A DNA stretch of 32,000 nucleotides, taken from positions 480,001 to 512,000 of the forward strand of contig CAZETV010000001.1 in NCBI GenBank assembly GCA_964514965.1, read 5' to 3'. Below, one piece after another: positions 4,867 to 28,040 of this stretch. The translations under genes and the position numbers were made by a program. Numbering within the stretch: the stretch's first letter is position 1; the number at the start of each line of letters is the position of its first letter. Below the pieces are notes generated by a model. It did not search any database. It was not told where the DNA came from and saw only the letters and a program-made list of their open reading frames with translations. This stretch comes from Candidatus Hadarchaeota archaeon. GTDB taxonomy: Archaea; Hadarchaeota; Hadarchaeia; Hadarchaeales; Hadarchaeaceae.

Positions 4867-5378
4867 GTGGAATCGAACATCGCAGGGGGGCACCAACACA
4901 CCTGAGGATAGCGGTTCTTGTCGTGAGCGATACTCGGGCGGCGGCCATACGTAAGGGACGTGATGAAGACGTTACCGGAAAGCTCATCGAACAAAGCGCG
5001 CGAGAAGCCGGGCACGAGACGACTAGATCAATAGTCCCAGATGATTCACGCAAGATAAAAAAAGCTGTCCAAGAGTTCATCGCGGACAAAAAAATCGATG
5101 TCGTGATAACTACGGGCGGCACTGGCATAACAAAGCGTGATGTCACAATTAAAACATTAAGCCCGCTCTTCGAAAAGGAGTTGCCGGGGTTTGGTGAAAT
5201 TCTGCGACGCATCGGCTATGAAAAAGTCGGCACGGCGGCGCTTCTGACCTTGAGTACCGCCGGCCTCATAAGGCGAAAGCTGGTTTTTTGCTTGCCCGGG
5301 GCCCCAAATGCGGCAGAGGTCGCGATGAAAATAATCCTTCCCGAGTTGGGGCACATCATCAAGCACGCACGTGAGTGA
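4863..5378 (+). CDS. moaB: Molybdenum cofactor biosynthesis protein MoaB/MogA family
   Basis: 171 aa. A TTG start overlaps the moaC stop by 4 nt. MoaB/MogA signatures are present: IAVLVVSD, VVITTGGTGITKRDVT, PGFGEILR, CLPGAPNA. Confidence 0.85.
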   Translation: MSGIEHRRGAPTHLRIAVLVVSDTRAAAIRKGRDEDVTGKLIEQSAREAGHETTRSIVPDDSRKIKKAVQEFIADKKIDVVITTGGTGITKRDVTIKTLSPLFEKELPGFGEILRRIGYEKVGTAALLTLSTAGLIRRKLVFCLPGAPNAAEVAMKIILPELGHIIKHARE

Positions 5379-6612
5379 GATGCAAGTTCGAATGCGGGGC
5401 TTTGCTCACTATACCAAGCTTGGAGATGCCCTGAAGCTCGTGCTTTCGCGAGTGAAACCTTTGAGTTCTGAGATAATCTCGTTCGATAAAGCGTTAGGGC
5501 GCGTGCTGGCCGAAGATGTCGTCTCAAAGATAGATGTCCCTCCCTTCAATCGCTCGGCCGTCGATGGTTACGCTGTTCGCGCGGCTGATGTATTTACGGC
5601 TAGTGAGACAAAACCAAAAAGACTTCGAATAATCTGGTCTGCGAAAATTGGAGTTCCAACCAAACTTTGTGTGCAAAAAGGAGAGGCAATCAAACTTATG
5701 ACTGGGGCACCAATGCCCCACGGCGCAGATGCAGTCGTAATGGTCGAACACACCAAAATCGAGAAAAAACGAATAGCTGTGCTGGTACCGCTCACACCCA
5801 ACAAGAATGTTTCAGCGCGGGGGGAGGATGTTCGCGCGGGCGATGTAGTGCTAAGGCGCGGGCAGCAACTCAGACCTCAAGATATCGGCATGCTTTCGTC
5901 AATCAGCCATCTCAAGGTGCCAGTTTTTCTTAAACCGAAAGTTGCGATTATCGTGACCGGACCCGAACTCAGGCGTCCAGGCAAACGACTAAAACCAGGC
6001 CAAATTACGGACATTAACAGGTACTCTTTATCCGCGGGGGTTACAAACTGCGGCGGCCTAGCGAATCCGCTCGGCATCACCTCTGACAAACCACAAGCGA
6101 TGCGCCGTGTGCTACAAACAGCACTGAAAAATGATGTGGTCCTTATTTCGGGCGGAAGTTCAGTGGGAGAACATGATATCGCCCCCGACATTGTTACCGA
6201 ACTTGGAGAGCTGCTTTTCCATGGTGTCGCCTTACGTCCCGGTGGCCCAACCGCATTTGGCGTGGTTCGGGGTAAGCCAGTGTTCTGTCTAGCTGGTTTT
6301 CCTGTTGCATCGCTGGTTGCTTTCGATATGTTGGTCAGACCCGCGATTTGGGCGATGCAGGGGCTGCCTCCGGATTGGGGATGCCTAAGGGTTCAGGCGA
6401 AGCTGACACGTAAGGTTGCCTCAAACTTGGGGCGCGTGGATGTGGTGCGGGTGCGGGTCCGGAGTGAGGCGGATGAACTTTTGGCTGAGCCAATCCGAAT
6501 CACAGGGTCAAGCATCCTGAGCTCGATGACGCGCGCTAATGGCTTTTTCTTGATTCCTGAAGATGTGGAAGGGTTTGGAAAGGATACTGTCATAGAGGTT
6601 GAACTTTATTAA
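5371..6612 (+). CDS. moeA: Molybdopterin molybdenumtransferase MoeA (paralog 1)
   Basis: 413 aa. Start is GTG 5371 (overlapping moaB) or ATG 5380. MoeA motifs present: IDVPPFNRSAVDGYAV, MTGAPMPHGADAVVMVE, ISGGSSVGEHD, CLAGFPVAS. Confidence 0.9.
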   Translation: MSEMQVRMRGFAHYTKLGDALKLVLSRVKPLSSEIISFDKALGRVLAEDVVSKIDVPPFNRSAVDGYAVRAADVFTASETKPKRLRIIWSAKIGVPTKLCVQKGEAIKLMTGAPMPHGADAVVMVEHTKIEKKRIAVLVPLTPNKNVSARGEDVRAGDVVLRRGQQLRPQDIGMLSSISHLKVPVFLKPKVAIIVTGPELRRPGKRLKPGQITDINRYSLSAGVTNCGGLANPLGITSDKPQAMRRVLQTALKNDVVLISGGSSVGEHDIAPDIVTELGELLFHGVALRPGGPTAFGVVRGKPVFCLAGFPVASLVAFDMLVRPAIWAMQGLPPDWGCLRVQAKLTRKVASNLGRVDVVRVRVRSEADELLAEPIRITGSSILSSMTRANGFFLIPEDVEGFGKDTVIEVELY

Positions 6613-6646: not shown

Positions 6647-6799
6647 GTGACAGGAAAGATTGAGGACATGGCAGCTGATTTAATCGCAGAGCTCAGGAAT
6701 CGACTCGACGAGCTTGAGCGCCGAGTTTCTTCCCTTGAGCTATCGCTGGGAAAAGCCCAGCTACCCAACCATGACAACAAGATTGAGTCGAAGCGTTAA
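6647..6799 (+). CDS. Small coiled-coil protein (50 aa from GTG 6647; the track ORF starts at TTG 6599)
   Basis: AAGGAG at 6632..6637 lies 9 nt upstream of GTG 6647. The heptad-like sequence is EDMAADLIAELRNRLDELERRVSSLELSL. It sits immediately upstream of, and co-oriented with, the secretion-type ATPase. Confidence 0.4.
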   Translation: MTGKIEDMAADLIAELRNRLDELERRVSSLELSLGKAQLPNHDNKIESKR

Positions 6800-6813: not shown

Positions 6814-9024
6814 ATGACGCTTCGGATCTATCGTTCCGGCCCACTTCAGGTCGCAGAAATAGAGTGTCATGGTTGCAAAGGGCTGAGTTCACTCGAAGAT
6901 AAGCGTTGCCGCGCCTGCGTGCTCAAGCAGCTCGGTGCGCAAAACTTGGTAGATCAAGTTACCCTTCGCCGGGCCTATAAACGAGTGTACTGTTCGAGCG
7001 AACTATCAAAACTCGCCAAAACCCTAGCTGTTATCAAACAGCTCATTTTCGACCGTGCATCCTATACTGCAAGTGAGAAAGACAAGTGCAAAGGTTGCGT
7101 AGATAAACGATGCAGAGAATTGACCGAACTATGGGAAAAAATTATAGAGACACCACATGATTTTTCACCGATTGAGAAATTAGTGAAAAAAAACAGTAAA
7201 CTTAAAGGCGAATGTGCGAAATGCACCGAACGTTATTTCCTAAAACTTATCGCGAGCGCAAGGACAGGATTGGCGAGTATTACAACAATTCAAAACGCTG
7301 ACAAAATTGATTACGAGGCGGTTTTTGCGGCACGGGTGATGCCTTTTTTCGTCGAGGGAATTTGTCATCCACCAAAGCACAGATTAAAACTGCTAGAGAC
7401 TTATGAGTTAGCCGAGCGGCGAGGCATTGTGCGAATCTATGAACAACTTGACCGTCCGCTGCCTTTCTACCAACTTGACCTTCCAGAATTCAAGATGCCC
7501 GCGGAGCACCTCCAGTTGCTGGATGATGCATATAAATTTGAGACGAAGACCAAACCAGGACACGCCCGTTTTGCTTTCCCAACGCGAATCTCGGGGTTCC
7601 TCGACGATTGGTACAATGTTTTGCTACATATCCTTCGGGAGCGCTCGGATGTCAAAATTCCCTCTGGTAAGCTTAGGGAACTAGCCAAGCAGATGTCCAG
7701 CTGGCTCACTTACCGATGGCTTGAACCACTCAGTTACGATGACAAACTAACCGACATTTACATCCCCGCACCGCCCGAGCTTCAGCCGATTCGAGTCGTC
7801 CACGAACGTTGGGATATGTGCGAGACTGGTATTCATTGGACGACGCCAGCTCTGTTGGGGTTTGGAGAAACGCTCGCTTCACGCCTTGCAACGTCTTTCG
7901 ATGAAGTCCGTCCGCAGTTGGACATTGAAATCCCCAAGCTTGGAATGCGATTATTTCTGAGTCGATACCCGGCGATATGGTCGAGGAGCATCGCGATATC
8001 TGCTAGGAAGCGCCGCCGACGAGCTTGGACTCAACCACTCTTCCTTGAGCGGAGCACACTCACACCTCTCGCCAGCTCGCTCGTGAGCAACCTCGTTCGG
8101 CGAGGTGCTTCAGCTTTTATAATAGGCGAGATGGGAAGTGCAAAGACCAGCGAAGTCGAGACGCTAGTGCCCGAGATAGGCCCCCACCAACGCATCATAG
8201 CGTTTCAGGATACGGAGGAACTCCACCTTGAGGAGTTCGTCACACATGGTTACTCAATCGAAAATGTACGAATTACCGATGCGGGTCATCTCCAACGCCA
8301 AATTGATGCCTTCCTTAGAGGGGGTGCTGCATACTGGCTCATCACAGAGGTACGGGCGATGGAGGCGGTTAGAGCAGCTTTGGGGGCGGCAACGCGGCAG
8401 GGAAGTCAACCAATCGTAAGCAGCTTTCATGCCCGCTCGAAGCAAGAGATGTTTGATCTGGTGTGCCGCATCATGGGATTGCATGACGCAGCTTACAAAT
8501 ACGTTGATCTTATTGTCAGCACCGCTCGATTTTCCACTCCCACCGGCACCATTAGACGAGTGATAGAGGTGGCTGAAGTACTCAAAGATTGGGAAAACAA
8601 ACCGAAATATGCCGAGCTTTTCACCGACGACCGCCAGCGAGATTTGCTCGTGCCAAGAAATTTTCTTTGCGGTGATAAGCACCTTCTCGAGTGCTTGAAC
8701 TCCTTTGACCTCTCAAAACTCAATGTTCTAGATGCTACACAAAGATTGGACTTCTTGCCACCTGAAAAAGGCGGAAGTCAACTTGTGCCCAAGATGTGCA
8801 AGAGGTTCGCGATAGATGAGCAAGAATTCCTAACGGGGATTCTCGCAGAGGCTAAAATGAAATCTGACTTGCTTTGTTTGGCCCGAAGCACTGGCAATAT
8901 GGATTATCTTGAGCTACCATTCGTGAGTCGCGCCTACGACGCTTACTTCTCTTTCGTTAAAGAAAATGACCCAGAGTACGAGCGCGTTCTAACAAGGTGG
9001 AAAAGTTGGTTGAAGACTCTTTAA
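6814..9024 (+). CDS. Divergent FlaI/PilB/VirB11-superfamily (type II/IV secretion) ATPase with a Cys-rich N-terminal extension
   Basis: 736 aa. The C-terminal half is collinear with FlaI/GspE-type ATPases. The P-loop region is FIIGEMGSAKTS, the Asp-box-like region IAFQDTEELH, the Walker-B/Glu region AYWLITEVRAMEA, and the His box SSFHARS. The N-terminus carries C18-x2-C21-x10-C32-x2-C35 and a second CKGC-x4-C...CAKC cluster. Confidence 0.8.
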   Translation: MTLRIYRSGPLQVAEIECHGCKGLSSLEDKRCRACVLKQLGAQNLVDQVTLRRAYKRVYCSSELSKLAKTLAVIKQLIFDRASYTASEKDKCKGCVDKRCRELTELWEKIIETPHDFSPIEKLVKKNSKLKGECAKCTERYFLKLIASARTGLASITTIQNADKIDYEAVFAARVMPFFVEGICHPPKHRLKLLETYELAERRGIVRIYEQLDRPLPFYQLDLPEFKMPAEHLQLLDDAYKFETKTKPGHARFAFPTRISGFLDDWYNVLLHILRERSDVKIPSGKLRELAKQMSSWLTYRWLEPLSYDDKLTDIYIPAPPELQPIRVVHERWDMCETGIHWTTPALLGFGETLASRLATSFDEVRPQLDIEIPKLGMRLFLSRYPAIWSRSIAISARKRRRRAWTQPLFLERSTLTPLASSLVSNLVRRGASAFIIGEMGSAKTSEVETLVPEIGPHQRIIAFQDTEELHLEEFVTHGYSIENVRITDAGHLQRQIDAFLRGGAAYWLITEVRAMEAVRAALGAATRQGSQPIVSSFHARSKQEMFDLVCRIMGLHDAAYKYVDLIVSTARFSTPTGTIRRVIEVAEVLKDWENKPKYAELFTDDRQRDLLVPRNFLCGDKHLLECLNSFDLSKLNVLDATQRLDFLPPEKGGSQLVPKMCKRFAIDEQEFLTGILAEAKMKSDLLCLARSTGNMDYLELPFVSRAYDAYFSFVKENDPEYERVLTRWKSWLKTL

Positions 9025-10979
9025 AAGTAGAGGAATGGCTACCCGTAAGCGAGGATGTACGAGAAATCCTTGAGCGTTTCAAACAGGTCGAGAAACGTCC
9101 ACCGTATTTTTATGAACGCCTGTGCAAGATCGCTTATCGAATTTTTGGTAAACTCACACAAAACATGAAAGTGACCGAATCTACCCAGCGCGAGCTTGAG
9201 CAAGCAAAGCTCAGAATTTCAGCGCGAGAGTACTGGGCTGGGTTCTTCCTCATGTTGAGCATTCCTATTCTTATGAGCGTTCTTGGGTGGCTACTAACAG
9301 GTCTGACAGGCTCGAACATACTCGCGATGTGGTGGCTCCCTATGCTTGACTTAGTATTAGCATGCGCCTTGGGAATGGTATTCTACCTCTATCCTCCAAG
9401 CCTCGCCGGGATAAAGCGAAGCGAAGCTCAAGGGGGGGCAATTCACACTATTATGTTGTTAAGCTTCGCTCTCTATCATAAGCCCGACCTGCGCGGGGCA
9501 ACGATTTTAGCTGCTAACGAAAGCAAAGGCGAACTCGCGGGTGACCTTCAGCGCGGGCTGCTCGAACTCGATACTCGCCACCGCTATGAGAGTGTCCGAC
9601 ATATGCTCACTGTAATAGCTCATAGGTGGGGCGAAATCGATGAGGGCACGAGGCAGGCGCTTTTCGATATTCTCCGCTCTACTGGTGCGCTGGAGGAATC
9701 TTCTCGCATCTCTGATGTTAGCAGGGCACCACAACGTGTTCTTGGGAGCAGTGAAGCTCAGCTGAGCAAGCGTTTAAACGCGCTGGTAATGCCCACAATG
9801 GCGTTCATGGTATTCGGCTCGCTTGCGATAGTCGGGATAATAGGTCTCTCTCCATTGTTCGGCGCGATAGGGGCAAACTTTGTCCAACTGCACTTCTTCG
9901 TGCTTACAACCCTCTTACTCGTGGCCTCCTTTTTCACATTCACTACATACATGGGCAGTCTCAGGCCCACGACCCTACCTCCTCCCGAGGTGCCGGAGGA
10001 TGATCCTCGCCTGCCCTCACGAGGGAATTCAAGAATCTTCTCGCGAGAAGTTCCATCTTGGTTGCCACCGCTCTTGGTTTTCCTTGCTATCGCTTGGCCA
10101 GGTTTCCTCTATTTCGGGGGCATTAAGGCGGGTACGTTAGGAGCGCTCGTTCAATGGGTGAACGCGTTTTGGTTCATCTGGGCTACGGCTGCGGCGGTTG
10201 CTGTCTACGCATATCTCTACGCTGGGCAGCGAAAGAAGTTTCGAGAAGAAGAAAGGACAAAGGCAATTGATTGGGTAGCGGCGCTCAACACTATCGGTTC
10301 ACGCATGATTGACGGGAAACCAATGAGCCAGGCGATGGTCGAGACTGCTGAGTTAATGCCAGAGTCGCCTGTCTCGAATCAGCTCCACGAAATCGTCGAA
10401 AGCACTGAAAAGCATGCCATAGATGTGCGCCGCGCGCTATTTGAGCGAGGGTTGGTCAAGCGAACCTTTAACCCCCTCATCCAAAGCTTCCTAAACGTGA
10501 TTACACGCATTCGACGGAGTTCGGAAGCTGCAGCAGGACAGGCGTGCATGATGGCGGCAGATTTCCTCTCGACGTTGCATTTAGTCGAACACCGCTTCCG
10601 TGATCGGATAGAGGAGGCGATGGGAAATCTCTGGTTAGTCACAGTAGTTCTGTTACCGACCGTCTGCGCGATGTCAGTCTGGGTGATGGAGTTCATGTCT
10701 GGTGTCTCGTTCACAGTGGCGGGTGAGTCTGCGGGTGCTGGACTGACGAATCTACCCCTCCTGCTGGGCGCAATGGAGGCCAGCGAACTCGTTCTCCTGA
10801 AACTCGTGATGGGTCTAACGGCTATAGCTCTCGCGGCGGTGATGGCTCGCTACATGGCAGTGATAAGTGCTGGCAACGATAAAGTCGAGCTTTGGATTAC
10901 GATGGGTAAAACCGTCTTGTCCACTACGATAGTTTTCACTGTCGCATACTTAGGTTTCGGTTTAATTAAGGGAGCGTAG
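8997..10979 (+). CDS. FlaJ/TadC/GspF-like polytopic membrane platform protein
   Basis: 660 aa. A GTG start overlaps the ATPase gene by 28 nt. At least 9 hydrophobic segments are present. Two soluble helical regions resemble T2SS-F repeats, for example AIDWVAALNTIGSRMIDGKPMSQAMVETAELMPESPVSNQLHEIVESTEKHAIDVRRAL. Position directly after a secretion ATPase supports the call. Confidence 0.7.
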   Translation: MEKLVEDSLKVEEWLPVSEDVREILERFKQVEKRPPYFYERLCKIAYRIFGKLTQNMKVTESTQRELEQAKLRISAREYWAGFFLMLSIPILMSVLGWLLTGLTGSNILAMWWLPMLDLVLACALGMVFYLYPPSLAGIKRSEAQGGAIHTIMLLSFALYHKPDLRGATILAANESKGELAGDLQRGLLELDTRHRYESVRHMLTVIAHRWGEIDEGTRQALFDILRSTGALEESSRISDVSRAPQRVLGSSEAQLSKRLNALVMPTMAFMVFGSLAIVGIIGLSPLFGAIGANFVQLHFFVLTTLLLVASFFTFTTYMGSLRPTTLPPPEVPEDDPRLPSRGNSRIFSREVPSWLPPLLVFLAIAWPGFLYFGGIKAGTLGALVQWVNAFWFIWATAAAVAVYAYLYAGQRKKFREEERTKAIDWVAALNTIGSRMIDGKPMSQAMVETAELMPESPVSNQLHEIVESTEKHAIDVRRALFERGLVKRTFNPLIQSFLNVITRIRRSSEAAAGQACMMAADFLSTLHLVEHRFRDRIEEAMGNLWLVTVVLLPTVCAMSVWVMEFMSGVSFTVAGESAGAGLTNLPLLLGAMEASELVLLKLVMGLTAIALAAVMARYMAVISAGNDKVELWITMGKTVLSTTIVFTVAYLGFGLIKGA

Positions 10980-14082: not shown

Positions 14083-14769
14083 ATGCCCTTAAAATCGCAG
14101 GTCAATAAATGCGCTTCCGCTCCAACGATTGCGGTCTTCACTATATTCTTGATCCTGTGCTCAAGCGTAGCGATAGTTACTTTTCAGTCTCTAGAAGAGC
14201 GAGGGGTCTCAACGATTATTCTGGAGAGTGCTGCTGATCTAGTTCGCGCTACAGCATCGCAAGTTGAAAGCGAACTAAATTCAACGCTCGAGAGCTCGAT
14301 AGTTGCTGCGATGTATGATGTCGGCTTAACGGGTGGTACGCGTGAAAATGTGGAAAATTACATTCGCGAATACATGAACGCGCATATCTCTGACATCAAC
14401 GCCTCTTCAAGCTCACCCCTTAAAGTCACCGTACCCCTATGCGACGAAAACTCGCTCATGATTGAGTGGTCACCTAATGGAGGCATTTGCGCGGGGGGTT
14501 ATCTAGACGCCAGCTTTGAGCATGTGATGGGCCCTAAAGCATTTGGGTTAAGTTTACATGCAATGTCCCGCCCGAGGTTTGAAAGGATAAAACAAGTAGC
14601 TGAATTATCTGCGGTGATGGTGGCGAACGCAGACATCGTGGAGTTGGAGCGAGTGCTTAACGAGAACTATGCGTGCGAAGGGCTTACGGTTGAGCTGGTG
14701 GATGAGAACGGTATAGTTTCAGTGACTGTGCGGGACATCTTTGGGGCTCGAGGAGTATTCGTTCCTTAA
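14083..14769 (+). CDS. N-terminally membrane-anchored protein, paralog of the 165-aa protein at 26273..26770
   Basis: 228 aa with a single N-terminal hydrophobic helix (PTIAVFTIFLILCSSVAIVTF). Collinear similarity to the 165-aa protein is visible: SIVAAMYDVGLTGG vs RAAAENLLLG, VENYIREYM vs AMENALEYL, and SLMIEWSPNGG vs SSWELSWPEG. Confidence 0.6.
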   Translation: MPLKSQVNKCASAPTIAVFTIFLILCSSVAIVTFQSLEERGVSTIILESAADLVRATASQVESELNSTLESSIVAAMYDVGLTGGTRENVENYIREYMNAHISDINASSSSPLKVTVPLCDENSLMIEWSPNGGICAGGYLDASFEHVMGPKAFGLSLHAMSRPRFERIKQVAELSAVMVANADIVELERVLNENYACEGLTVELVDENGIVSVTVRDIFGARGVFVP

Positions 14770-15761
14770 ACCACAGCTTCTAACTCGGGCTCCGATTGGA
14801 AAACAAAGCCAGGAGTATTTTCCAGATACCACCATGGCATAGCTTGATATTGCAAGATGTAACCGTCAAATTCTACCTGCCAAGTGAGGTAAGTGGAAAC
14901 GTTGGTAGTCACTGCAGCAGCTCGAATCGATGCGTTATTCGGTATGCTTACTACTAAATTATCGCTTATACGCCGCCAAGTCCGCGAGCGTAAATAACCA
15001 AGCGCCTGCGCAGGCGAGTACAGCCATCCACTCAAGTAAGCGTTTTCTGCACTGGGACAGAGTAAGGGGTTGTCAAATTCTCCCGAGTAATTATCGATGT
15101 TTGAAATAACCCAATTATTATCGACGAGTCCGATATTTTCACAGTTTTCGTACCCTTGAACACGAAGCAATATTGAACCAGTACGAACGAGTATCGAATC
15201 GCTATTTTCCCATTTGTATGCGTCAATGTCACGGGACACGTCAAAGTAGGCGGCGATAATCGCTGTTGCCTCGCGCTGGTTCTCTCGCGCGAAATAATAG
15301 AATTCCGGTGGTTCGCCTGAGGGTGTGTGAAAAACGTTTTCAGGTACCGTTTCAATCGGGGAGGCGCTGACGAGCACGACATCACCCGAGCACGTGAAAT
15401 AAACCCTTCCTCCAGGTGTGATGCTTGTACTCTCCATCTGCAACCCTACATTTGCAACGGTCCAGTAGCTTTCGCCTGCTCCAGTCCCCTCTGTTATCCT
15501 CACTATGAAGGTCGAGCGGTTCTCATCTATTTCGAGCTCATAACTTGAACCAGCTAATTGCAAGGGCAAGTCAAGAGTGGGCTGCTGTCCAGATAGAGCT
15601 GAAAAACAGGTTTTTGCTAAATCGTCCGCAAGCGCTTGGGCCTGAGCACTGACCTCGAATTCCCGCTGCTCCGTCAACTGCATGAAGAAGACCCCCGCAA
15701 GCAGAATAGCCATGAGAATCCCGAAGAGCAGATAGAACGGCAGCTCGTAGGTATCAGACAC
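14766..15761 (-). CDS. N-terminally membrane-anchored protein (331 aa), unknown family
   Basis: A GTG start overlaps the upstream 120-aa gene stop by 8 nt. The N-terminus is MSDTYELPFYLLFGILMAILLAGVFF, followed by a beta-rich, Trp/Tyr/Asn-rich extracellular-looking domain. Confidence 0.65.
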   Translation of the reverse strand: MSDTYELPFYLLFGILMAILLAGVFFMQLTEQREFEVSAQAQALADDLAKTCFSALSGQQPTLDLPLQLAGSSYELEIDENRSTFIVRITEGTGAGESYWTVANVGLQMESTSITPGGRVYFTCSGDVVLVSASPIETVPENVFHTPSGEPPEFYYFARENQREATAIIAAYFDVSRDIDAYKWENSDSILVRTGSILLRVQGYENCENIGLVDNNWVISNIDNYSGEFDNPLLCPSAENAYLSGWLYSPAQALGYLRSRTWRRISDNLVVSIPNNASIRAAAVTTNVSTYLTWQVEFDGYILQYQAMPWWYLENTPGFVFQSEPELEAVV

Positions 15762-16116
15762 TTACCGTCACCCCATTCTCCGTGCGCTTGATAACTAGCC
15801 GCGCCTGTTGCCCGCTGAGAGTCGGCCCACTGACCATGGCACCCGCATCGAAATTCTCCTGTGTCTGCCCGATTACGATCACTACTGATTTCTCTTCGAA
15901 TTGGAGTTCACAGTTTGTGGGCACCATGATGTCGAAGGGGAGAGAAGCCCCTACGTCTTGATCTGCTAGGAGCTTTACCTGCTGCGCGAGCTGCTCGGCC
16001 TGGTGTCTGAAAACGGTCTCTGTGCTCCCATTCTGATATTGTAAGTATAGTGTAGCGAAAATCGAGAGGAAAATTGCAACAAAGATAACACTCGCTAAGG
16101 TTCGAAGAGCCACCAT
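15754..16116 (-). CDS. Small N-terminally anchored protein (120 aa), paralog of 27189..27542
   Basis: The N-terminus MVALRTLASVIFVAIFLSIFATLY matches MPAFRTLALVILAAFVVSIFILGY. Shared downstream pattern: I.VP....I.FE...V.I.G and a C-terminal L.V....N.V.VS. Confidence 0.65.
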   Translation of the reverse strand: MVALRTLASVIFVAIFLSIFATLYLQYQNGSTETVFRHQAEQLAQQVKLLADQDVGASLPFDIMVPTNCELQFEEKSVVIVIGQTQENFDAGAMVSGPTLSGQQARLVIKRTENGVTVSV

Positions 16117-16238: not shown

Positions 16239-17489
16239 ATGGTATTCATGCCTGAGTTTCTCCACGTGGCCAAACTTGAGGATGCTTGCACAAAGCTTGA
16301 GAAACATTGGAAAATCAAGCCACGAAAAGTCAACGTGCCGCTCGATGAGGCCGCTGGACGTGTGCTGTCCGAAGATGTCGTCTCAAAGATCGATGTCCCT
16401 CCGTTTAATCGTGCTGTTTTTGATGGCTATGCAGTCCATGCTATGGACACATTTGGAGCCGGGGAAGAATCGCCCGTTGAACTCACTTGCGTGGGTAGCG
16501 TACGCGCAGGCGAGTGGCCGAAGATTAAAATCAGGAGGAGGCAGTGCACAGAGATTTCTACTGGCGCACCAATCCCAAGAGGTGCGAACGCCGTGTCCAT
16601 GGTTGAATACTCAACTGTGGATGCACAAGTCGTTCAAATTTTTCGCGCGGTTGCACCGGGAGAGAACATCTCCAAGAGAGGTTCAGAGATTAAACATGGG
16701 ATGAAGGTTTTGCACGCAGGAAGAGTGATAACACCCCAAATACTTGGAACACTCGCGGCAATCGGGAAAAAACGAGCCAAAGTTTACTCACCCAAAGTTG
16801 CGGTGATATCAAGCGGAATCGAGTTAGTCAGCGCGGGCTCCTCACTCAGACGGGGGAAAATATACGATGTAAACGGACCCGCGATCTGTCGAGCCGTCAA
16901 GCTCTGCGGGGCTGAGGCTAAATATCTCGGCATCGCGAAGGATGAACTCAGTAGCCTGACTAATTTTGTTAAAAGAGGGCTGGCAACCTGCGATGTGATA
17001 TTACTCTCGGGGGGGTCGTCAGCTGGTGCAGGGGATATCGCGCCAGCCGTGATTGACCGGATGGGAAAACCCGGTGTAATTGTGCACGGGCTTGCGATGA
17101 AACCTGGCAAACCAGCATTCGTGGCTGTCGTGCGGGGTAAACCGATTTTTGGGCTTCCTGGCTATCCGGTTTCCGCACTGATGGTTTTCGACCAGCTAGT
17201 TGCACCTTACCTGCGCCACCTGAGCGGCTTACCGCGAGTTGAACGGGCAAAAGTTCAGGCGAAGTTAGCATCTAAAATCATCTCGGCGCGGGGGAGACGA
17301 GAACTCGTGCCAGTGAAGCTCGTTCAAGAAGGGAGAGAAGTTTGTGCTAAACCGCTATTCAAAGGTTCGGGTGCGATAACTGCGCTCTCGCTGGCCGACG
17401 GATACATTGATGTGCCGATCAATCGAGAAATCGTCGAAGAAGGCGAAGTCATCGAGGTCAACTTGTTCAGAGGTGTCGAGGTTGCTTAG
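16239..17489 (+). CDS. moeA: Molybdopterin molybdenumtransferase MoeA (paralog 2)
   Basis: 416 aa with MoeA motifs IDVPPFNRAVFDGYAV, STGAPIPRGANAVSMVE, LSGGSSAGAGD, GLPGYPVSA. An AAATTTTAAAC box lies about 20-28 nt upstream of the ATG. Confidence 0.9.
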   Translation: MVFMPEFLHVAKLEDACTKLEKHWKIKPRKVNVPLDEAAGRVLSEDVVSKIDVPPFNRAVFDGYAVHAMDTFGAGEESPVELTCVGSVRAGEWPKIKIRRRQCTEISTGAPIPRGANAVSMVEYSTVDAQVVQIFRAVAPGENISKRGSEIKHGMKVLHAGRVITPQILGTLAAIGKKRAKVYSPKVAVISSGIELVSAGSSLRRGKIYDVNGPAICRAVKLCGAEAKYLGIAKDELSSLTNFVKRGLATCDVILLSGGSSAGAGDIAPAVIDRMGKPGVIVHGLAMKPGKPAFVAVVRGKPIFGLPGYPVSALMVFDQLVAPYLRHLSGLPRVERAKVQAKLASKIISARGRRELVPVKLVQEGREVCAKPLFKGSGAITALSLADGYIDVPINREIVEEGEVIEVNLFRGVEVA

Positions 17490-26272: not shown

Positions 26273-26770
26273 TTAGGCCCCAGCAATCTCGAAAATCCTC
26301 ACGGTCGCTGGCACAGCAATGTTTTCCCCACCAGCCGTGGTTAAACGTACCTCCCCTTGTCTAACAAATTGTTTCTCCGCATCTATGCCGGGCCCAACAC
26401 CTTCGGGCCATGAAAGCTCCCAAGAAGAGTTATCGTAACTTAAGTTGACCGCCACAGCATATCCTGGCGGGCAAAGGTATTCGAGGGCGTTCTCCATGGC
26501 GGAGCGCAAGTGGAGTCCAGGCACGGTTGGTTGTCCTAGCAGAAGATTTTCGGCGGCCGCTCGCAGAAAGCTTATACTATACGGCCCGACCCAAGCGAGC
26601 TCCAATGTCATGTACAAATGTTCGCTCTTGAGTTCGAGTTGGCGGTCGGTGGCTGTCTGGAGTGGTCTCAAGCTGTAGGTGTGCATAAACACCGCGGCGA
26701 GGACTAGCATTACAAACATGAAAGCGATTGCGAGAATATCTGCAACGCCCTGATTTTCTAAGCGCGCCAT
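26273..26770 (-). CDS. N-terminally membrane-anchored protein (165 aa), paralog of 14083..14769
   Basis: The likely start is ATG 26770 (MARLENQGVADILAIAFMFVMLVLAAVFMHTY), overlapping the upstream gene by 13 nt. This is the last gene of a 4-gene minus-strand operon. Its stop is 1 nt from the convergent rad50 stop. Confidence 0.6.
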   Translation of the reverse strand: MARLENQGVADILAIAFMFVMLVLAAVFMHTYSLRPLQTATDRQLELKSEHLYMTLELAWVGPYSISFLRAAAENLLLGQPTVPGLHLRSAMENALEYLCPPGYAVAVNLSYDNSSWELSWPEGVGPGIDAEKQFVRQGEVRLTTAGGENIAVPATVRIFEIAGA

Positions 26771-27192
26771 GCGATCACACTTAACTTGGCGGGTAAGAAT
26801 CGGCCATCCTCGTAGAGTGCGCACGCCACCGCCAACGAACATCTCGCCTTATCCTCGGGTGGGGCTAAACCATAGGGTCCGAGAATATATTCGCTCCCAG
26901 CCTCGTAGCTCACCGAAACCAAAAAATCAAAGTTTTCACCACCAATCTCCCAGCGGGTGGGACAATTTTCAAGTTTCTCAGGATCAATCGAGTACATGTG
27001 CAACTTTTCATCGTTGTCTACATACGCCAGTTCCTCTACAGATAGGCGGGTGACGATTGCTGACGTGACATCAGTTAGCTCAGTGAGCGCAGAGATGGTA
27101 CGGTGTTGTTGGTAAGCAGAGACGGTCACAAGCAAGAAAGAGATAACAAGAATGCATGTAGTAAGTGTTTTCAGGATTTGGGTTAGTGTCAT
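26758..27192 (-). CDS. N-terminally membrane-anchored protein (144 aa), unknown family
   Basis: The N-terminus is MTLTQILKTLTTCILVISFLLVTVSAY, followed by a soluble domain. The start overlaps the upstream gene stop by 4 nt. Confidence 0.6.
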   Translation of the reverse strand: MTLTQILKTLTTCILVISFLLVTVSAYQQHRTISALTELTDVTSAIVTRLSVEELAYVDNDEKLHMYSIDPEKLENCPTRWEIGGENFDFLVSVSYEAGSEYILGPYGLAPPEDKARCSLAVACALYEDGRFLPAKLSVIAWRA

Positions 27193-27542
27193 TTGCTCAC
27201 CACGACTGAATTATCTTCAAGCGTTACTGTTAGCACGTATGAACCTTCGCTGAGTTCTTGGCCTATTAATTGTATCGAGTACCCATTTTCTGGGACTTCG
27301 AAACCGTTTATTGCCACACGTTGATTTTCAAACTTGATTTTGTAACCGCTAGGCACAGTAATCTCAACGGTTTGTGGGTTTCCGGTCGCAATCGCTGCTT
27401 GAACACCGTTGTTCAGTTCAAGTGCAGCGTCCCTTGCTCTACGCTCGCGGTCGAGTCCTTGAAGGAACTGGTACCCTAAAATGAATATCGAAACTACGAA
27501 AGCGGCAAGTATCACGAGCGCAAGGGTCCTGAAAGCGGGCAT
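27189..27542 (-). CDS. Small N-terminally anchored protein (117 aa), paralog of 15754..16116
   Basis: The N-terminus MPAFRTLALVILAAFVVSIFILGY is followed by a beta-rich domain. See the paralog comparison at 15754..16116. Confidence 0.65.
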   Translation of the reverse strand: MPAFRTLALVILAAFVVSIFILGYQFLQGLDRERRARDAALELNNGVQAAIATGNPQTVEITVPSGYKIKFENQRVAINGFEVPENGYSIQLIGQELSEGSYVLTVTLEDNSVVVSK

Positions 27543-27547
27543 ACTTT

Positions 27548-28006
27548 CTAGCCTACGATAGTCAGCTGAAATGTTGTGCTCTTTGTGGTACCGTCTTCGC
27601 CCGTCACACGGATACTTATCGTGATGGCGTCTGGCTCGGCAGTATTATCGACGCTTATGGTCATGATCGAATCGAACTCTGGGGTGCTGCTCTGAGGAGA
27701 GAAACTTACGCTAACTCCAGTTGGCATTCCAGTCGCGCTGAGCGTCACCTGCTTGTCGTAACCCAGCACTGATTGGACGGTGACTTGCGCAGTAATCGTA
27801 TTCTCGCTAGTTGTTGGTTTTCCAATCGTTTCACTCGTGGGCGAGACGTTTACGCTAAAGCTAAGAGTCTCCTGCGCGCCTATGCCCACCTGCTGGTAAA
27901 GCGTCACTCCTATACCCAGCCCCACAGCGAGCAAGATTATGCCCGCCATGATTTTCATCACGGTAGGTTCTACCCCTACTTCATCCTCCAATAACCCCTT
28001 CACCAT
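27548..28006 (-). CDS. Candidate archaeal type IV pilin-like / surface filament subunit with C-terminal Ig-like (CARDB/PKD-like) beta domain
   Basis: ATG 28006 is preceded by GGAGGT at a 5-nt spacing; the track starts 2 codons earlier at TTG. The N-terminus MVKGLLEDEVGVEPTVMKIMAGIILLAVGLGIGVTLY resembles the archaeal flagellin/pilin N-terminal domain (compare ..RGVSPVIGVILMVAITV..). The C-terminus has alternating beta pattern QVTLSATGMPTGVSVSFSPQSS...ITISIRVTGEDGTTKSTTFQLTIV. Confidence 0.6.
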   Translation of the reverse strand: MVKGLLEDEVGVEPTVMKIMAGIILLAVGLGIGVTLYQQVGIGAQETLSFSVNVSPTSETIGKPTTSENTITAQVTVQSVLGYDKQVTLSATGMPTGVSVSFSPQSSTPEFDSIMTISVDNTAEPDAITISIRVTGEDGTTKSTTFQLTIVG

Positions 28007-28040
28007 GCTCAACCTCCATAGCTTACTTTTCGATCTTTAA

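Follow-up and report, generated by a model that had tools for sequence, protein, structure and literature searches.

The stretch of DNA analysed here (the window) is 32,000 nucleotides (nt) of a Candidatus Hadarchaeota archaeon genome (contig CAZETV010000001.1, positions 480,001 to 512,000), and it carries a gene for a very divergent FlaI/GspE-type secretion ATPase. This protein belongs to a clade with a remodelled active site. We think it probable that it is the dedicated ATPase of a type IV filament system restricted to Hadarchaeota, and that its altered active site is functional. What is new is the clade with its remodelled active site; the Cys-rich N-terminal domain is a known property of the wider family, and the system is not a new kind of machine. 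The gene and the motifs of its 736-amino acid (aa) product are as follows.

6814..9024, + strand: variant FlaI/GspE-type secretion ATPase, 736 aa (FlaI model, AlphaFold2 (AF2), Foldseek)
6865..6918, + strand: Cys4 site I, C18-x2-C21-x10-C32-x2-C35 (CHGCKGLSSLEDKRCRAC) (translation, alignment, model)
7087..7224, + strand: Cys4 site II, C92-x2-C95 ... C134-x2-C137 (CKGC...CAKC) (translation, alignment, model)
7948..8016, + strand: Arg fingers R379 and R398, plus the basic linker R400/R401 (RLFLSRYPAIWSRSIAISARKRR) (alignment)
8125..8151, + strand: variant Walker A, GEMGSAKTS, family form G-[ED]-x-G-[TS]-A-K-T-S (direct translation, alignment)
8203..8223, + strand: Asp box FQDTEEL, first Glu replaced by Gln, Q465 (direct translation, alignment)
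8317..8355, + strand: atypical Walker B region RGGAAYWLITEVR, D and G of D-h4-G-E replaced (direct translation, alignment)
8422..8436, + strand: His box SFHAR with H539, invariant in 59 of 59 orthologues

The protein consists of a Cys-rich N-terminal extension (residues 1 to about 170), a FlaI-like N-terminal domain (NTD, about 171-420), a RecA-like C-terminal domain (CTD, about 421-612) and a helical C-terminal tail of some 120 residues (about 613-736). The NCBIfam FlaI model matched it with E = 3e-15 and 55.9 bits, a score that does not reach the 550-bit equivalog cut-off of NF058587. When PDB sequences were searched with phmmer, residues 302-612 aligned with S. acidocaldarius FlaI (E = 1e-10) and with A. 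fulgidus GspE. The AF2 model computed from the family alignment was confident (predicted local distance difference test score, pLDDT, 88.9; predicted template modelling score, pTM, 0.86). Its top Foldseek matches were FlaI (4ihq and 4ii7) and A. fulgidus GspE (afGspE, 2oap), with E of about 1e-25 and target-normalised template modelling (TM) scores of 0.71-0.76 over about 570 columns, and CpaF, PilB, VirB11, PilT and DotB ranked after these. Foldseek and phmmer thus both match the protein to the two-domain fold of the PilT/VirB11-like enzymes, a PAS-like NTD followed by a RecA-like CTD. Nearly the whole of FlaI maps to residues from about 170 to 736, with K444 at the position of FlaI K268. An earlier note on this DNA, made from the sequence alone, had placed the protein in the secretion ATPase superfamily, and the profile, phmmer and structural matches bear this out. 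The same note had put the N-terminal part at roughly 430 aa and called it much longer than in FlaI; judged by K444 against K268 and by the Foldseek columns, the true excess over FlaI is about 170-176 residues.

HMMER alignments to FlaI (4ii7) and afGspE (2oap) placed the four motifs of the query over GETASGKTT, IEDTPEL, RQRPNYILVGEIR and TFHA, which are the places the earlier note had assigned by eye. A canonical P-loop hidden elsewhere in the protein would have undone that assignment, but the pattern [AG]x4GK[ST] was sought throughout the rest of the sequence and not found. Conservation was assessed in an alignment of 59 orthologous sequences, and a word-indexed search gave 124 relatives at 40-90% identity, mostly full length and all from metagenome-assembled genomes (MAGs) and metagenomes of Hadarchaeota/Hadesarchaea. 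In Walker A, G438, A443, K444, T445 and S446 were invariant in 59 of 59, and GxxxxAKT was present in 119 of 120 family matches, the sole exception being an N-terminal fragment. The Asp-box residues Q465, D466, T467 and E469 were likewise invariant (59/59), as were R502, G504, W508, E512 and R514 in the Walker B region. The substitutions proposed for this region, loss of the Asp and Gly with retention of the Glu, were confirmed: position 505 is A, P, S, E or Q in the variant family as against [ED] in 110 of 110 full-length canonical sisters (described below), and position 511, T in the query, is T in 47, A in 8 and S in 4 variant sequences as against G in all 110 sisters. The Arg fingers and linker (R379, R398, R400 and R401) were invariant in 59/59, R379 and R398 in the canonical sister family also. 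R379 and R398 align with FlaI R203 and R222, with a spacing of 19 residues in both proteins.

Pairwise comparison with four close orthologues gave ratios of nonsynonymous to synonymous substitution rates (dN/dS, omega) of 0.087-0.107 for the whole gene. The ratio was lowest on the ATPase core (NTD 0.044-0.057, CTD 0.056-0.082) and reached 0.09-0.23 in the N-terminal extension and C-terminal tail. The 59/59 conservation, the AKT motif in 119 of 120 sequences and purifying selection together indicate that the variant motifs are selected states, neither errors nor decay. The substitutions are thus conserved among orthologues (A443 and Q465 in 59/59), and are not the unconserved noise that the earlier note had allowed for.

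To interpret the substitutions we mapped them onto enzymes with assigned active-site residues. Complete conservation among PilT-like ATPases has been described for the Walker A and B residues, for the catalytic Glu, for two Arg fingers and for a single Asp-box Glu (McCallum et al. 2017, PMC5424180). In GmPilB the Asp-box residue E357 coordinates Mg, standing in for the missing Walker B Asp, and E395 is the catalytic Glu (PMC5424180). The GmPilB chain in 5tsg is numbered with an offset of +20, such that GE415 corresponds to E395; the Asp box E373-D-P-V-E377 of that chain is accordingly E353...E357 in native numbering, which makes E357 the final Glu of the box. The P. aeruginosa PilT chain has K136, E159-D-P-I-E163 and G203-E204, and here the published K136 and E204 agree with the chain numbering (PMC6762196). 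FlaI has the Asp box E289-D-T-P-E293 and the catalytic Glu E336. GmPilB E357 is therefore equivalent to PilT E163, FlaI E293 and query E469, and GmPilB E395 to FlaI E336 and query E512. Since E357 maps to the last Asp-box Glu by PDB chain numbering, E469 is the predicted Mg ligand of the variant. The change of Glu to Gln noticed earlier is real and fixed in 59/59, but it affects the first Glu of the box, and the Mg-coordinating last Glu is kept; we accordingly rejected the idea that this substitution removes the Mg ligand.

All residues with an assigned mechanistic role in PMC5424180 are thus invariant in the variant family: K444/T445, E512, E469, H539, R379 and R398. By this mapping the changed positions are backbone or second-shell positions, and every side chain predicted to bind phosphate or Mg, or to activate water, is kept. 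Because no side chain to which a chemical role has been assigned is lost, catalysis has probably been retained, possibly with altered kinetics. An alanine before the Walker A lysine also has a precedent in active enzymes, as the yeast ATPases Mcm2, Mcm3 and Mcm5 have the Walker A sequence GDP[GS]TAKSQ, that is GxxGxAK[ST] (PMC2952866, Table 1). The description of the motifs as degenerate, and of the protein as a possible pseudo-ATPase, is not supported, given the invariance of all mechanistically assigned residues, an omega that is lowest in the core of the gene, and a P-loop that is normal in active MCM proteins.

The variant proteins form a discrete group. In a profile search of 1.84 billion representatives, variant members scored 640-1118 bits and all other sequences at most 322 bits. 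Among all collected sequences, the combination of AKT, Q and [TAS]E was found in 121, exclusively in the variant clade, and GK[ST], E and GE in 218 relatives. A maximum likelihood (ML) tree, made by quick search with the three trait columns removed, recovered the variant clade as monophyletic, with support of 99 in the Shimodaira-Hasegawa-like approximate likelihood ratio test (SH-aLRT) and a stem of 0.94 substitutions per site. This supports the suggestion that the protein could represent a new clade. The clade joins near the base of the long-form group, outside the Hadarchaeota canonical clade, and the tree gives no support to the variant as a recent duplicate of the Hadarchaeota canonical gene. 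Given the quick search and the long stem, its basal position could be a long-branch effect. The variant ATPase is present in 51 of 66 Hadarchaeota genomes and in 23 of the 26 of high quality.

Two further sequences bear on the distribution of the P-loop change. P0248 (764 aa, metagenomic) alone combines an AKT P-loop, in the Walker A GSKSTAKTS, with a canonical Asp box and G-E Walker B. Its branch in the tree is long and unresolved; it may have acquired the Ala independently or represent an intermediate state of the P-loop change. P0282 was considered as a second outlier with AKT and was rejected, as MAFFT reads it as the canonical GTRSAGKTS.

The genome (1.28 Mb, 94.5% complete) contains three other PF00437 matches besides the variant ATPase. 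One is a canonical long paralogue (L002/L008; L008:4113-6308) of 731 aa, which aligned to query residues 5-734 with 25% identity (E = 1e-47). Its motifs are canonical (GSRGSGKTS, LEDTSEL, RLGESILVVGEVR and TIHGA), and it has similar N-terminal CxxC clusters and a C-terminal tail. It is followed by a 591-aa membrane protein (L008:6309-8084) that matches Pfam T2SSF with 26.0 bits against a cut-off of 25.2, and preceded by a 92-aa coiled-coil open reading frame (ORF) whose best Pfam match is DUF7310, at 23.8 bits (cut-off 40). The second (L001, G000:C1:1006439-1010359) is a 565-aa FlaI-like ATPase (PF00437, 184 bits) followed by a 369-aa T2SSF protein. This ATPase scored 316 bits against the 550-bit FlaI equivalog cut-off, and by these profile scores the genome seems to be without a true archaellum motor. 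The third (L003) is an unrelated weak PF00437 match of 26 bits.

The canonical long-form family is large, with 4,896 matches extending beyond Hadarchaeota into Hydrothermarchaeaceae, Methanobacteriota and Altiarchaeales. In 110 full-length members the Walker A Gly, the first Asp-box Glu, [ED] at 505 and the Gly before the catalytic Glu were all invariant. The canonical long paralogue co-occurs with the variant in 21 of 23 high-quality variant-bearing genomes; the other two (G007 and G029) appear to have the variant only. Apparent inteins sit exactly in Walker A or the Asp box of many canonical long-form relatives, which reach 1,100-1,780 aa. The P-loop candidates are P0260, P0274, P0275, P0283, P0295 and P0342, and those in the Asp box P0293, P0298, P0299, P0301 and P0314. 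At the insertions the hidden Markov model (HMM) alignment reads '...AHN|TS' after GK in Walker A and '-HN|TLEL' in the Asp box, and precomputed Pfam matches to LAGLIDADG and intein-splicing domains exist for P0142 and P0183. No such apparent insertions were present in members of the variant clade.

Both Cys4 sites anticipated in the N-terminal extension are present and conserved, their cysteines being found in 47-57 of the 59 variant sequences (50-52 for site II); C100, the extra Cys of CKGC-x4-C, is not conserved. The extension is not peculiar to the variant, being shared by the canonical paralogue and its large family. Site I ligands C18, C21 and C32 are common to the canonical sisters (104/110), and the fourth ligand is C35 in the variant and C3 in the sister family, whose set is C3, C20, C23 and C35. 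Site II is invariant in 110/110 sisters, and is deleted in a basal short-form variant clade (about 660 aa) that keeps the motif substitutions. In the AF2 model a beta-hairpin precedes the first CxxC of site I, and helix 30-41 begins with the second; this predicted knuckle-plus-helix layout is typical of zinc sites. C92/C95 and C134/C137 of site II lie at the N-termini of two long helices. The earlier proposal of two zinc ribbons therefore stands as two conserved Cys4 sites, but site II, bridging two helix N-termini in the model, is not a zinc ribbon. The cysteines of subclade 4F ATPases have been read as disulfide formers (Makarova et al., PMC4858521). For the sites described here a metal seems more likely than disulfides in a cytoplasmic domain of anaerobes.

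The genes around the variant ATPase were compared in 50 loci from reference genomes, all from Hadarchaeota. The relevant genes in the window are listed below.

6647..6799, + strand: small coiled-coil ORF, 50 aa from GTG (66 aa from TTG at 6599); candidate accessory or regulatory ATPase partner
8997..10979, + strand: FlaJ/PilC/TadC-type platform membrane protein, 660 aa; overlaps the ATPase gene by 28 nt
14083..14769, + strand: pilin-like gene, 228 aa; elsewhere the fifth gene after the platform and/or a member of a divergent upstream trio
14766..16116, - strand: two N-terminally anchored proteins, 331 aa (14766-15761) and 120 aa (15754-16116); trio with the 228-aa gene
26273..26842, - strand: pilin-like gene 4, about 165-189 aa, class III-like signal Q-G|V-A-D-I-L; homologues after the platform in about 17 loci
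26758..27192, - strand: operon gene 3, 144 aa, N-terminal membrane helix; same slot between the p117 and p189 homologues elsewhere
27189..27542, - strand: pilin-like gene 2, 117 aa (p117), N-terminal hydrophobic helix; homologue after the platform in about 17 loci
27548..28012, - strand: pilin-like gene 1, 154 aa (p154), G-V-E-P motif, hydrophobic helix and immunoglobulin (Ig)-like beta-sandwich

Wherever a locus extends beyond the ATPase gene, the platform gene comes next, in most cases with an overlap. Pfam gave no match to the 660-aa protein, which is homologous over its full length to the T2SSF-positive 591-aa partner of the paralogue (21% identity, E = 1e-22). Of 45 loci, 13 have an ORF with L-x2-[RK]-[LVI]-x2-L-E immediately before the ATPase gene; they are spread over the clade, and among them are both the variant clade that branches most basally and the locus of the canonical paralogue. 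The 50-aa ORF of the window and the 92-aa ORF of the paralogue have a similar L-x2-R-L-x2-L-E-R-R-V-x2-L-E core, and for both the best Pfam match is sub-threshold DUF7310 (17 bits for the 50-aa ORF, cut-off 40). The 50-aa protein is likely to be an accessory or regulatory partner of the ATPase.

In about 17 loci the platform is directly followed by a conserved five-gene operon, encoding in order proteins of 145-160 aa (with [DE][EQ]RG|VEP and a hydrophobic helix), 120 aa, 135-145 aa, 160-173 aa (with [KR]G|VSDIL) and 226 aa (with RG|SA). The window holds genes 1-4 of this operon at 28012-26273 (-) and the fifth at 14083-14769. Orthologues of gene 1 stand right after the platform in other Hadarchaeota and have the [DE][EQ]RG|VEP motif. 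The AF2 model of p154 has a helix at 16-49 and an eight-stranded Ig-like sandwich with pLDDT above 90, a predicted architecture consistent with archaeal pilins. The p117 protein gave a weak Pfam Pilin_N match (E = 0.22) and is paralogous to the 120-aa gene at 15754-16116. Homologues of gene 4 have a conserved [KR]G|VSDIL N-terminus, and orthologues of the 228-aa gene have RG|SA/AA followed by a hydrophobic helix. In about 10 loci a trio homologous to the 120-, 331- and 228-aa genes lies upstream of the variant ATPase in divergent orientation (adjoining it in, for example, L009/L038, L035, L039, L041 and L056), with BLASTP E values of 9e-61 and 5e-14. A Peptidase_A24 prepilin peptidase gene (70.8 bits) is located on contig 2. 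The four core components of a type IV filament system (ATPase, platform, pilin-like subunits and prepilin peptidase) are therefore present, the peptidase gene being elsewhere in the genome.

Nine unannotated genes of the window (26273-28012 (-) and 14083-16116) encode N-terminally anchored pilin-like proteins, and the locus is here scattered over about 20 kb. The ATPase operon lies between a molybdopterin gene block and glnA, a neighbourhood with glnA that recurs in many related loci. The window contains two moeA paralogues (5371-6612 and 16239-17489), with moaC and moaB upstream of the first.

We propose that the variant ATPase and the long-form (about 730 aa) secretion ATPases of archaea are paralogues that separated long ago. 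Four active-site changes would have occurred on the stem of the clade: Gly to Ala in Walker A, Glu to Gln at the first Asp-box Glu, loss of the Walker B Asp, and Gly to Thr, Ala or Ser before the catalytic Glu. By analogy with FlaI and PilB the enzyme would assemble as a hexamer on the cytoplasmic side of the FlaJ/PilC-like platform with which it pairs, and the platform gene is presumably translationally coupled to that of the ATPase. Binding and hydrolysis of ATP would then drive insertion into a surface filament of pilin-like subunits with class III signal peptides, processed by the prepilin peptidase encoded elsewhere in the genome. Homology, fold, the motif states with their conservation, purifying selection, the gene neighbourhood and the canonical paralogue come directly from the data, whereas hexamer formation, ATPase activity, metal binding by the Cys4 sites and filament assembly by the variant system are here inferred from sequence and from these analogies.

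Several observations weigh against this proposal. Two of the replaced residues, the Gly preceding the Walker A Lys and that of D-h4-G-E, are reported to be conserved without exception in PilT-like ATPases (PMC5424180). All sisters (110 of 110) have Glu at the first of the two Asp-box Glu positions, so this residue is probably important. MCM proteins belong to the AAA+ ATPases and are not PilT-like, so that the precedent for the Ala P-loop is indirect. In five MAGs (G006, G007, G013, G024 and G051) the variant gene appears split or stop-bearing, which could reflect assembly errors, pseudogenes or insertions; such copies are at G007:C1:32898-35080, G006:C41:1605-3783 and G024:C2:13610-14797 + 40552-41604, the last with its halves 26 kb apart. 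Pfam, including PF00437, gave no match to the ATPase at E <= 1 and none in a six-frame scan of the genome. Some variant orthologues do pass PF00437, as does the canonical paralogue at 71 bits, and the miss is a limit of model sensitivity and no evidence against homology. On the side of the filament, Pfam and NCBIfam gave nothing significant for the pilin-like proteins, and the pilin-like genes of this genome are 3-17 kb from the ATPase gene and not adjacent to it. Foldseek searches with the p154 model retrieved generic Ig-like domains only and no archaeal pilins, and we do not claim a pilin fold match for this protein. The putative pilin identity of these proteins rests on the N-terminal motif and overall architecture.

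The strongest alternative, which we nevertheless consider unlikely, is that the variant is a regulatory or scaffolding paralogue that binds ATP and hydrolyses it very slowly or not at all. It would act as a switch or latch on the platform while another ATPase, either the canonical long paralogue or the 565-aa FlaI-like enzyme, did the work, in an arrangement loosely like that of PilT-dependent PilU. Four normally invariant active-site positions altered together and then fixed are what such a role might leave behind, and a change of Glu to Gln near the metal site tends to slow hydrolysis in other ATPases of the ASCE (additional strand, catalytic glutamate) division. Candidates for the working enzyme are also at hand, with two other T2SSE ATPases in this genome and a canonical long paralogue in most (21/23) of the high-quality variant genomes. 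A mere nucleotide sensor, however, needs fewer conserved residues than the invariant set of catalytic Glu, Mg-binding Glu, His, Arg fingers and Lys/Thr, and the variant comes with a platform that co-evolves with it and with an adjacent pilin operon of its own. In no fewer than two high-quality genomes (G007 and G029) the variant occurs with no detectable canonical long paralogue, and the MCM precedent makes an Ala P-loop compatible with catalysis (PMC2952866).

It is considerably less probable that the remodelled site serves a new substrate or cofactor, such as another nucleoside triphosphate or deoxynucleoside triphosphate or a divalent cation besides Mg, in a protein that is still a motor. 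The invariant changes do cluster at the phosphate and metal site (A443, Q465 and T511), suggesting a selected new geometry, and Gln in place of Glu alters the charge beside the metal-binding Glu. Yet there is no change in the Mg ligand E469 or in the Thr of Walker A, and position 511 accepts T, A and S, so that it probably has no direct ligand role. The data contain no sign of a different nucleotide, the base-recognition residues being outside the analysis. Sequencing or assembly errors or pseudogene decay as the source of the odd motifs, to which a few split or stop-bearing MAG copies might point, are refuted by the agreement of 119 of 120 independent metagenomic and MAG sequences, the intact 736-aa frame, a dN/dS of about 0.1 and the confident AF2 model.

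A dedicated filament ATPase with a remodelled but working site is thus the reading we prefer. A more speculative reading, unlikely in our estimation, is that the fixed Ala P-loop, the Gln and the loss of D and G mark out a class of type IV filament motor with distinct kinetics. Such a motor could be a slow, tight-binding 'ATP latch' fit for the extreme energy limitation of subsurface Hadarchaeota, or the coiled-coil partner, or an N-terminal Cys4 domain that responds to metal or redox state, could gate its hydrolysis. In that case the P-loop and Walker B geometry so far deemed invariant in PilT-like motors can vary in a motor that still runs. According to the literature, PilT/VirB11-like motors show complete conservation in Walker A and in the atypical Walker B (PMC5424180); here four such positions are replaced. 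The clade, present in about three-quarters of sampled Hadarchaeota genomes, represents a natural experiment on active-site positions held to be indispensable, with the canonical paralogue in the same cell as control. As PF00437 annotation misses the ATPase, censuses of archaeal type IV filaments may under-count this Hadarchaeota system and its pilin-like operon.

Among described systems the closest is subclade 4F. Makarova et al. (2016) reported that the ATPases of this subclade have an additional N-terminal Cys-rich domain, and described a coiled-coil arCOG07564 protein in 4F loci (PMC4858521). Subsystem-specific N- and C-terminal extensions of type IV filament (T4F) ATPases have been noted by Sivabalasarma & Albers (2026) (PMC13705601). 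Neither paper mentions Hadarchaeota or a deviation in the Walker motifs, and no description of the variant clade was found in the literature on Hadesarchaea type IV pili and on type IV pilus (T4P) pseudo-ATPases. The variant system resembles 4F in its long ATPase of about 730 aa with N-terminal Cys-rich domain and C-terminal extension, in the long single-gene TadC/FlaJ-type platform immediately downstream, and possibly in a small intracellular coiled-coil protein upstream that may correspond to arCOG07564 (its DUF7310 matches being sub-threshold). The canonical pair of this genome (L008), taken as its 4F representative, has both Cys4 sites in common with the variant. The variant differs from these canonical relatives in its Ala P-loop, its Gln in the Asp box and the loss of D and G from D-h4-G-E. 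It also differs from 4F in forming a separate, long-stemmed clade restricted to Hadarchaeota, in that PF00437 does not detect the protein of this window, and in the pilin-like operon that adjoins the ATPase-platform pair in related loci; for 4F, most pilins are described as stand-alone. The long-form group as a whole matches the description of subclade 4F, and in the ML tree the variant appears to branch at its base and not inside it.

FlaI (4ii7/4ihq) and A. fulgidus GspE2 (2oap) are the best sequence and fold matches and share the NTD and RecA-like CTD. The Arg-finger spacing of FlaI is equal to that of the variant, and the Asp-box Glu is 43 residues from the catalytic Glu in both. The variant is longer than FlaI and GspE2 by about 170 residues at the N-terminus, where the two Cys4 sites lie, and by about 120 at the C-terminus, and its motifs are altered. 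It is not an archaellum motor, because its neighbourhood contains no archaellum genes, neither archaellin nor FlaG/F/H/X. MCM helicases (Walker A GDP[GS]T[AS]KSQ) have the GxxGxAK[ST] P-loop in common with the variant and are demonstrably active ATPases (PMC2952866). They differ in belonging to the AAA+ division of ASCE and in having a classical hhhhDE Walker B, and the likeness is convergent and confined to the P-loop. Bacterial GspE and PilB also have a Cys4 metal site in a secretion ATPase, and PilB crystals contain zinc (PMC5424180). That site lies in the C-terminal domain, whereas the variant has two, both in an N-terminal extension that is absent from the bacterial enzymes and from FlaI.

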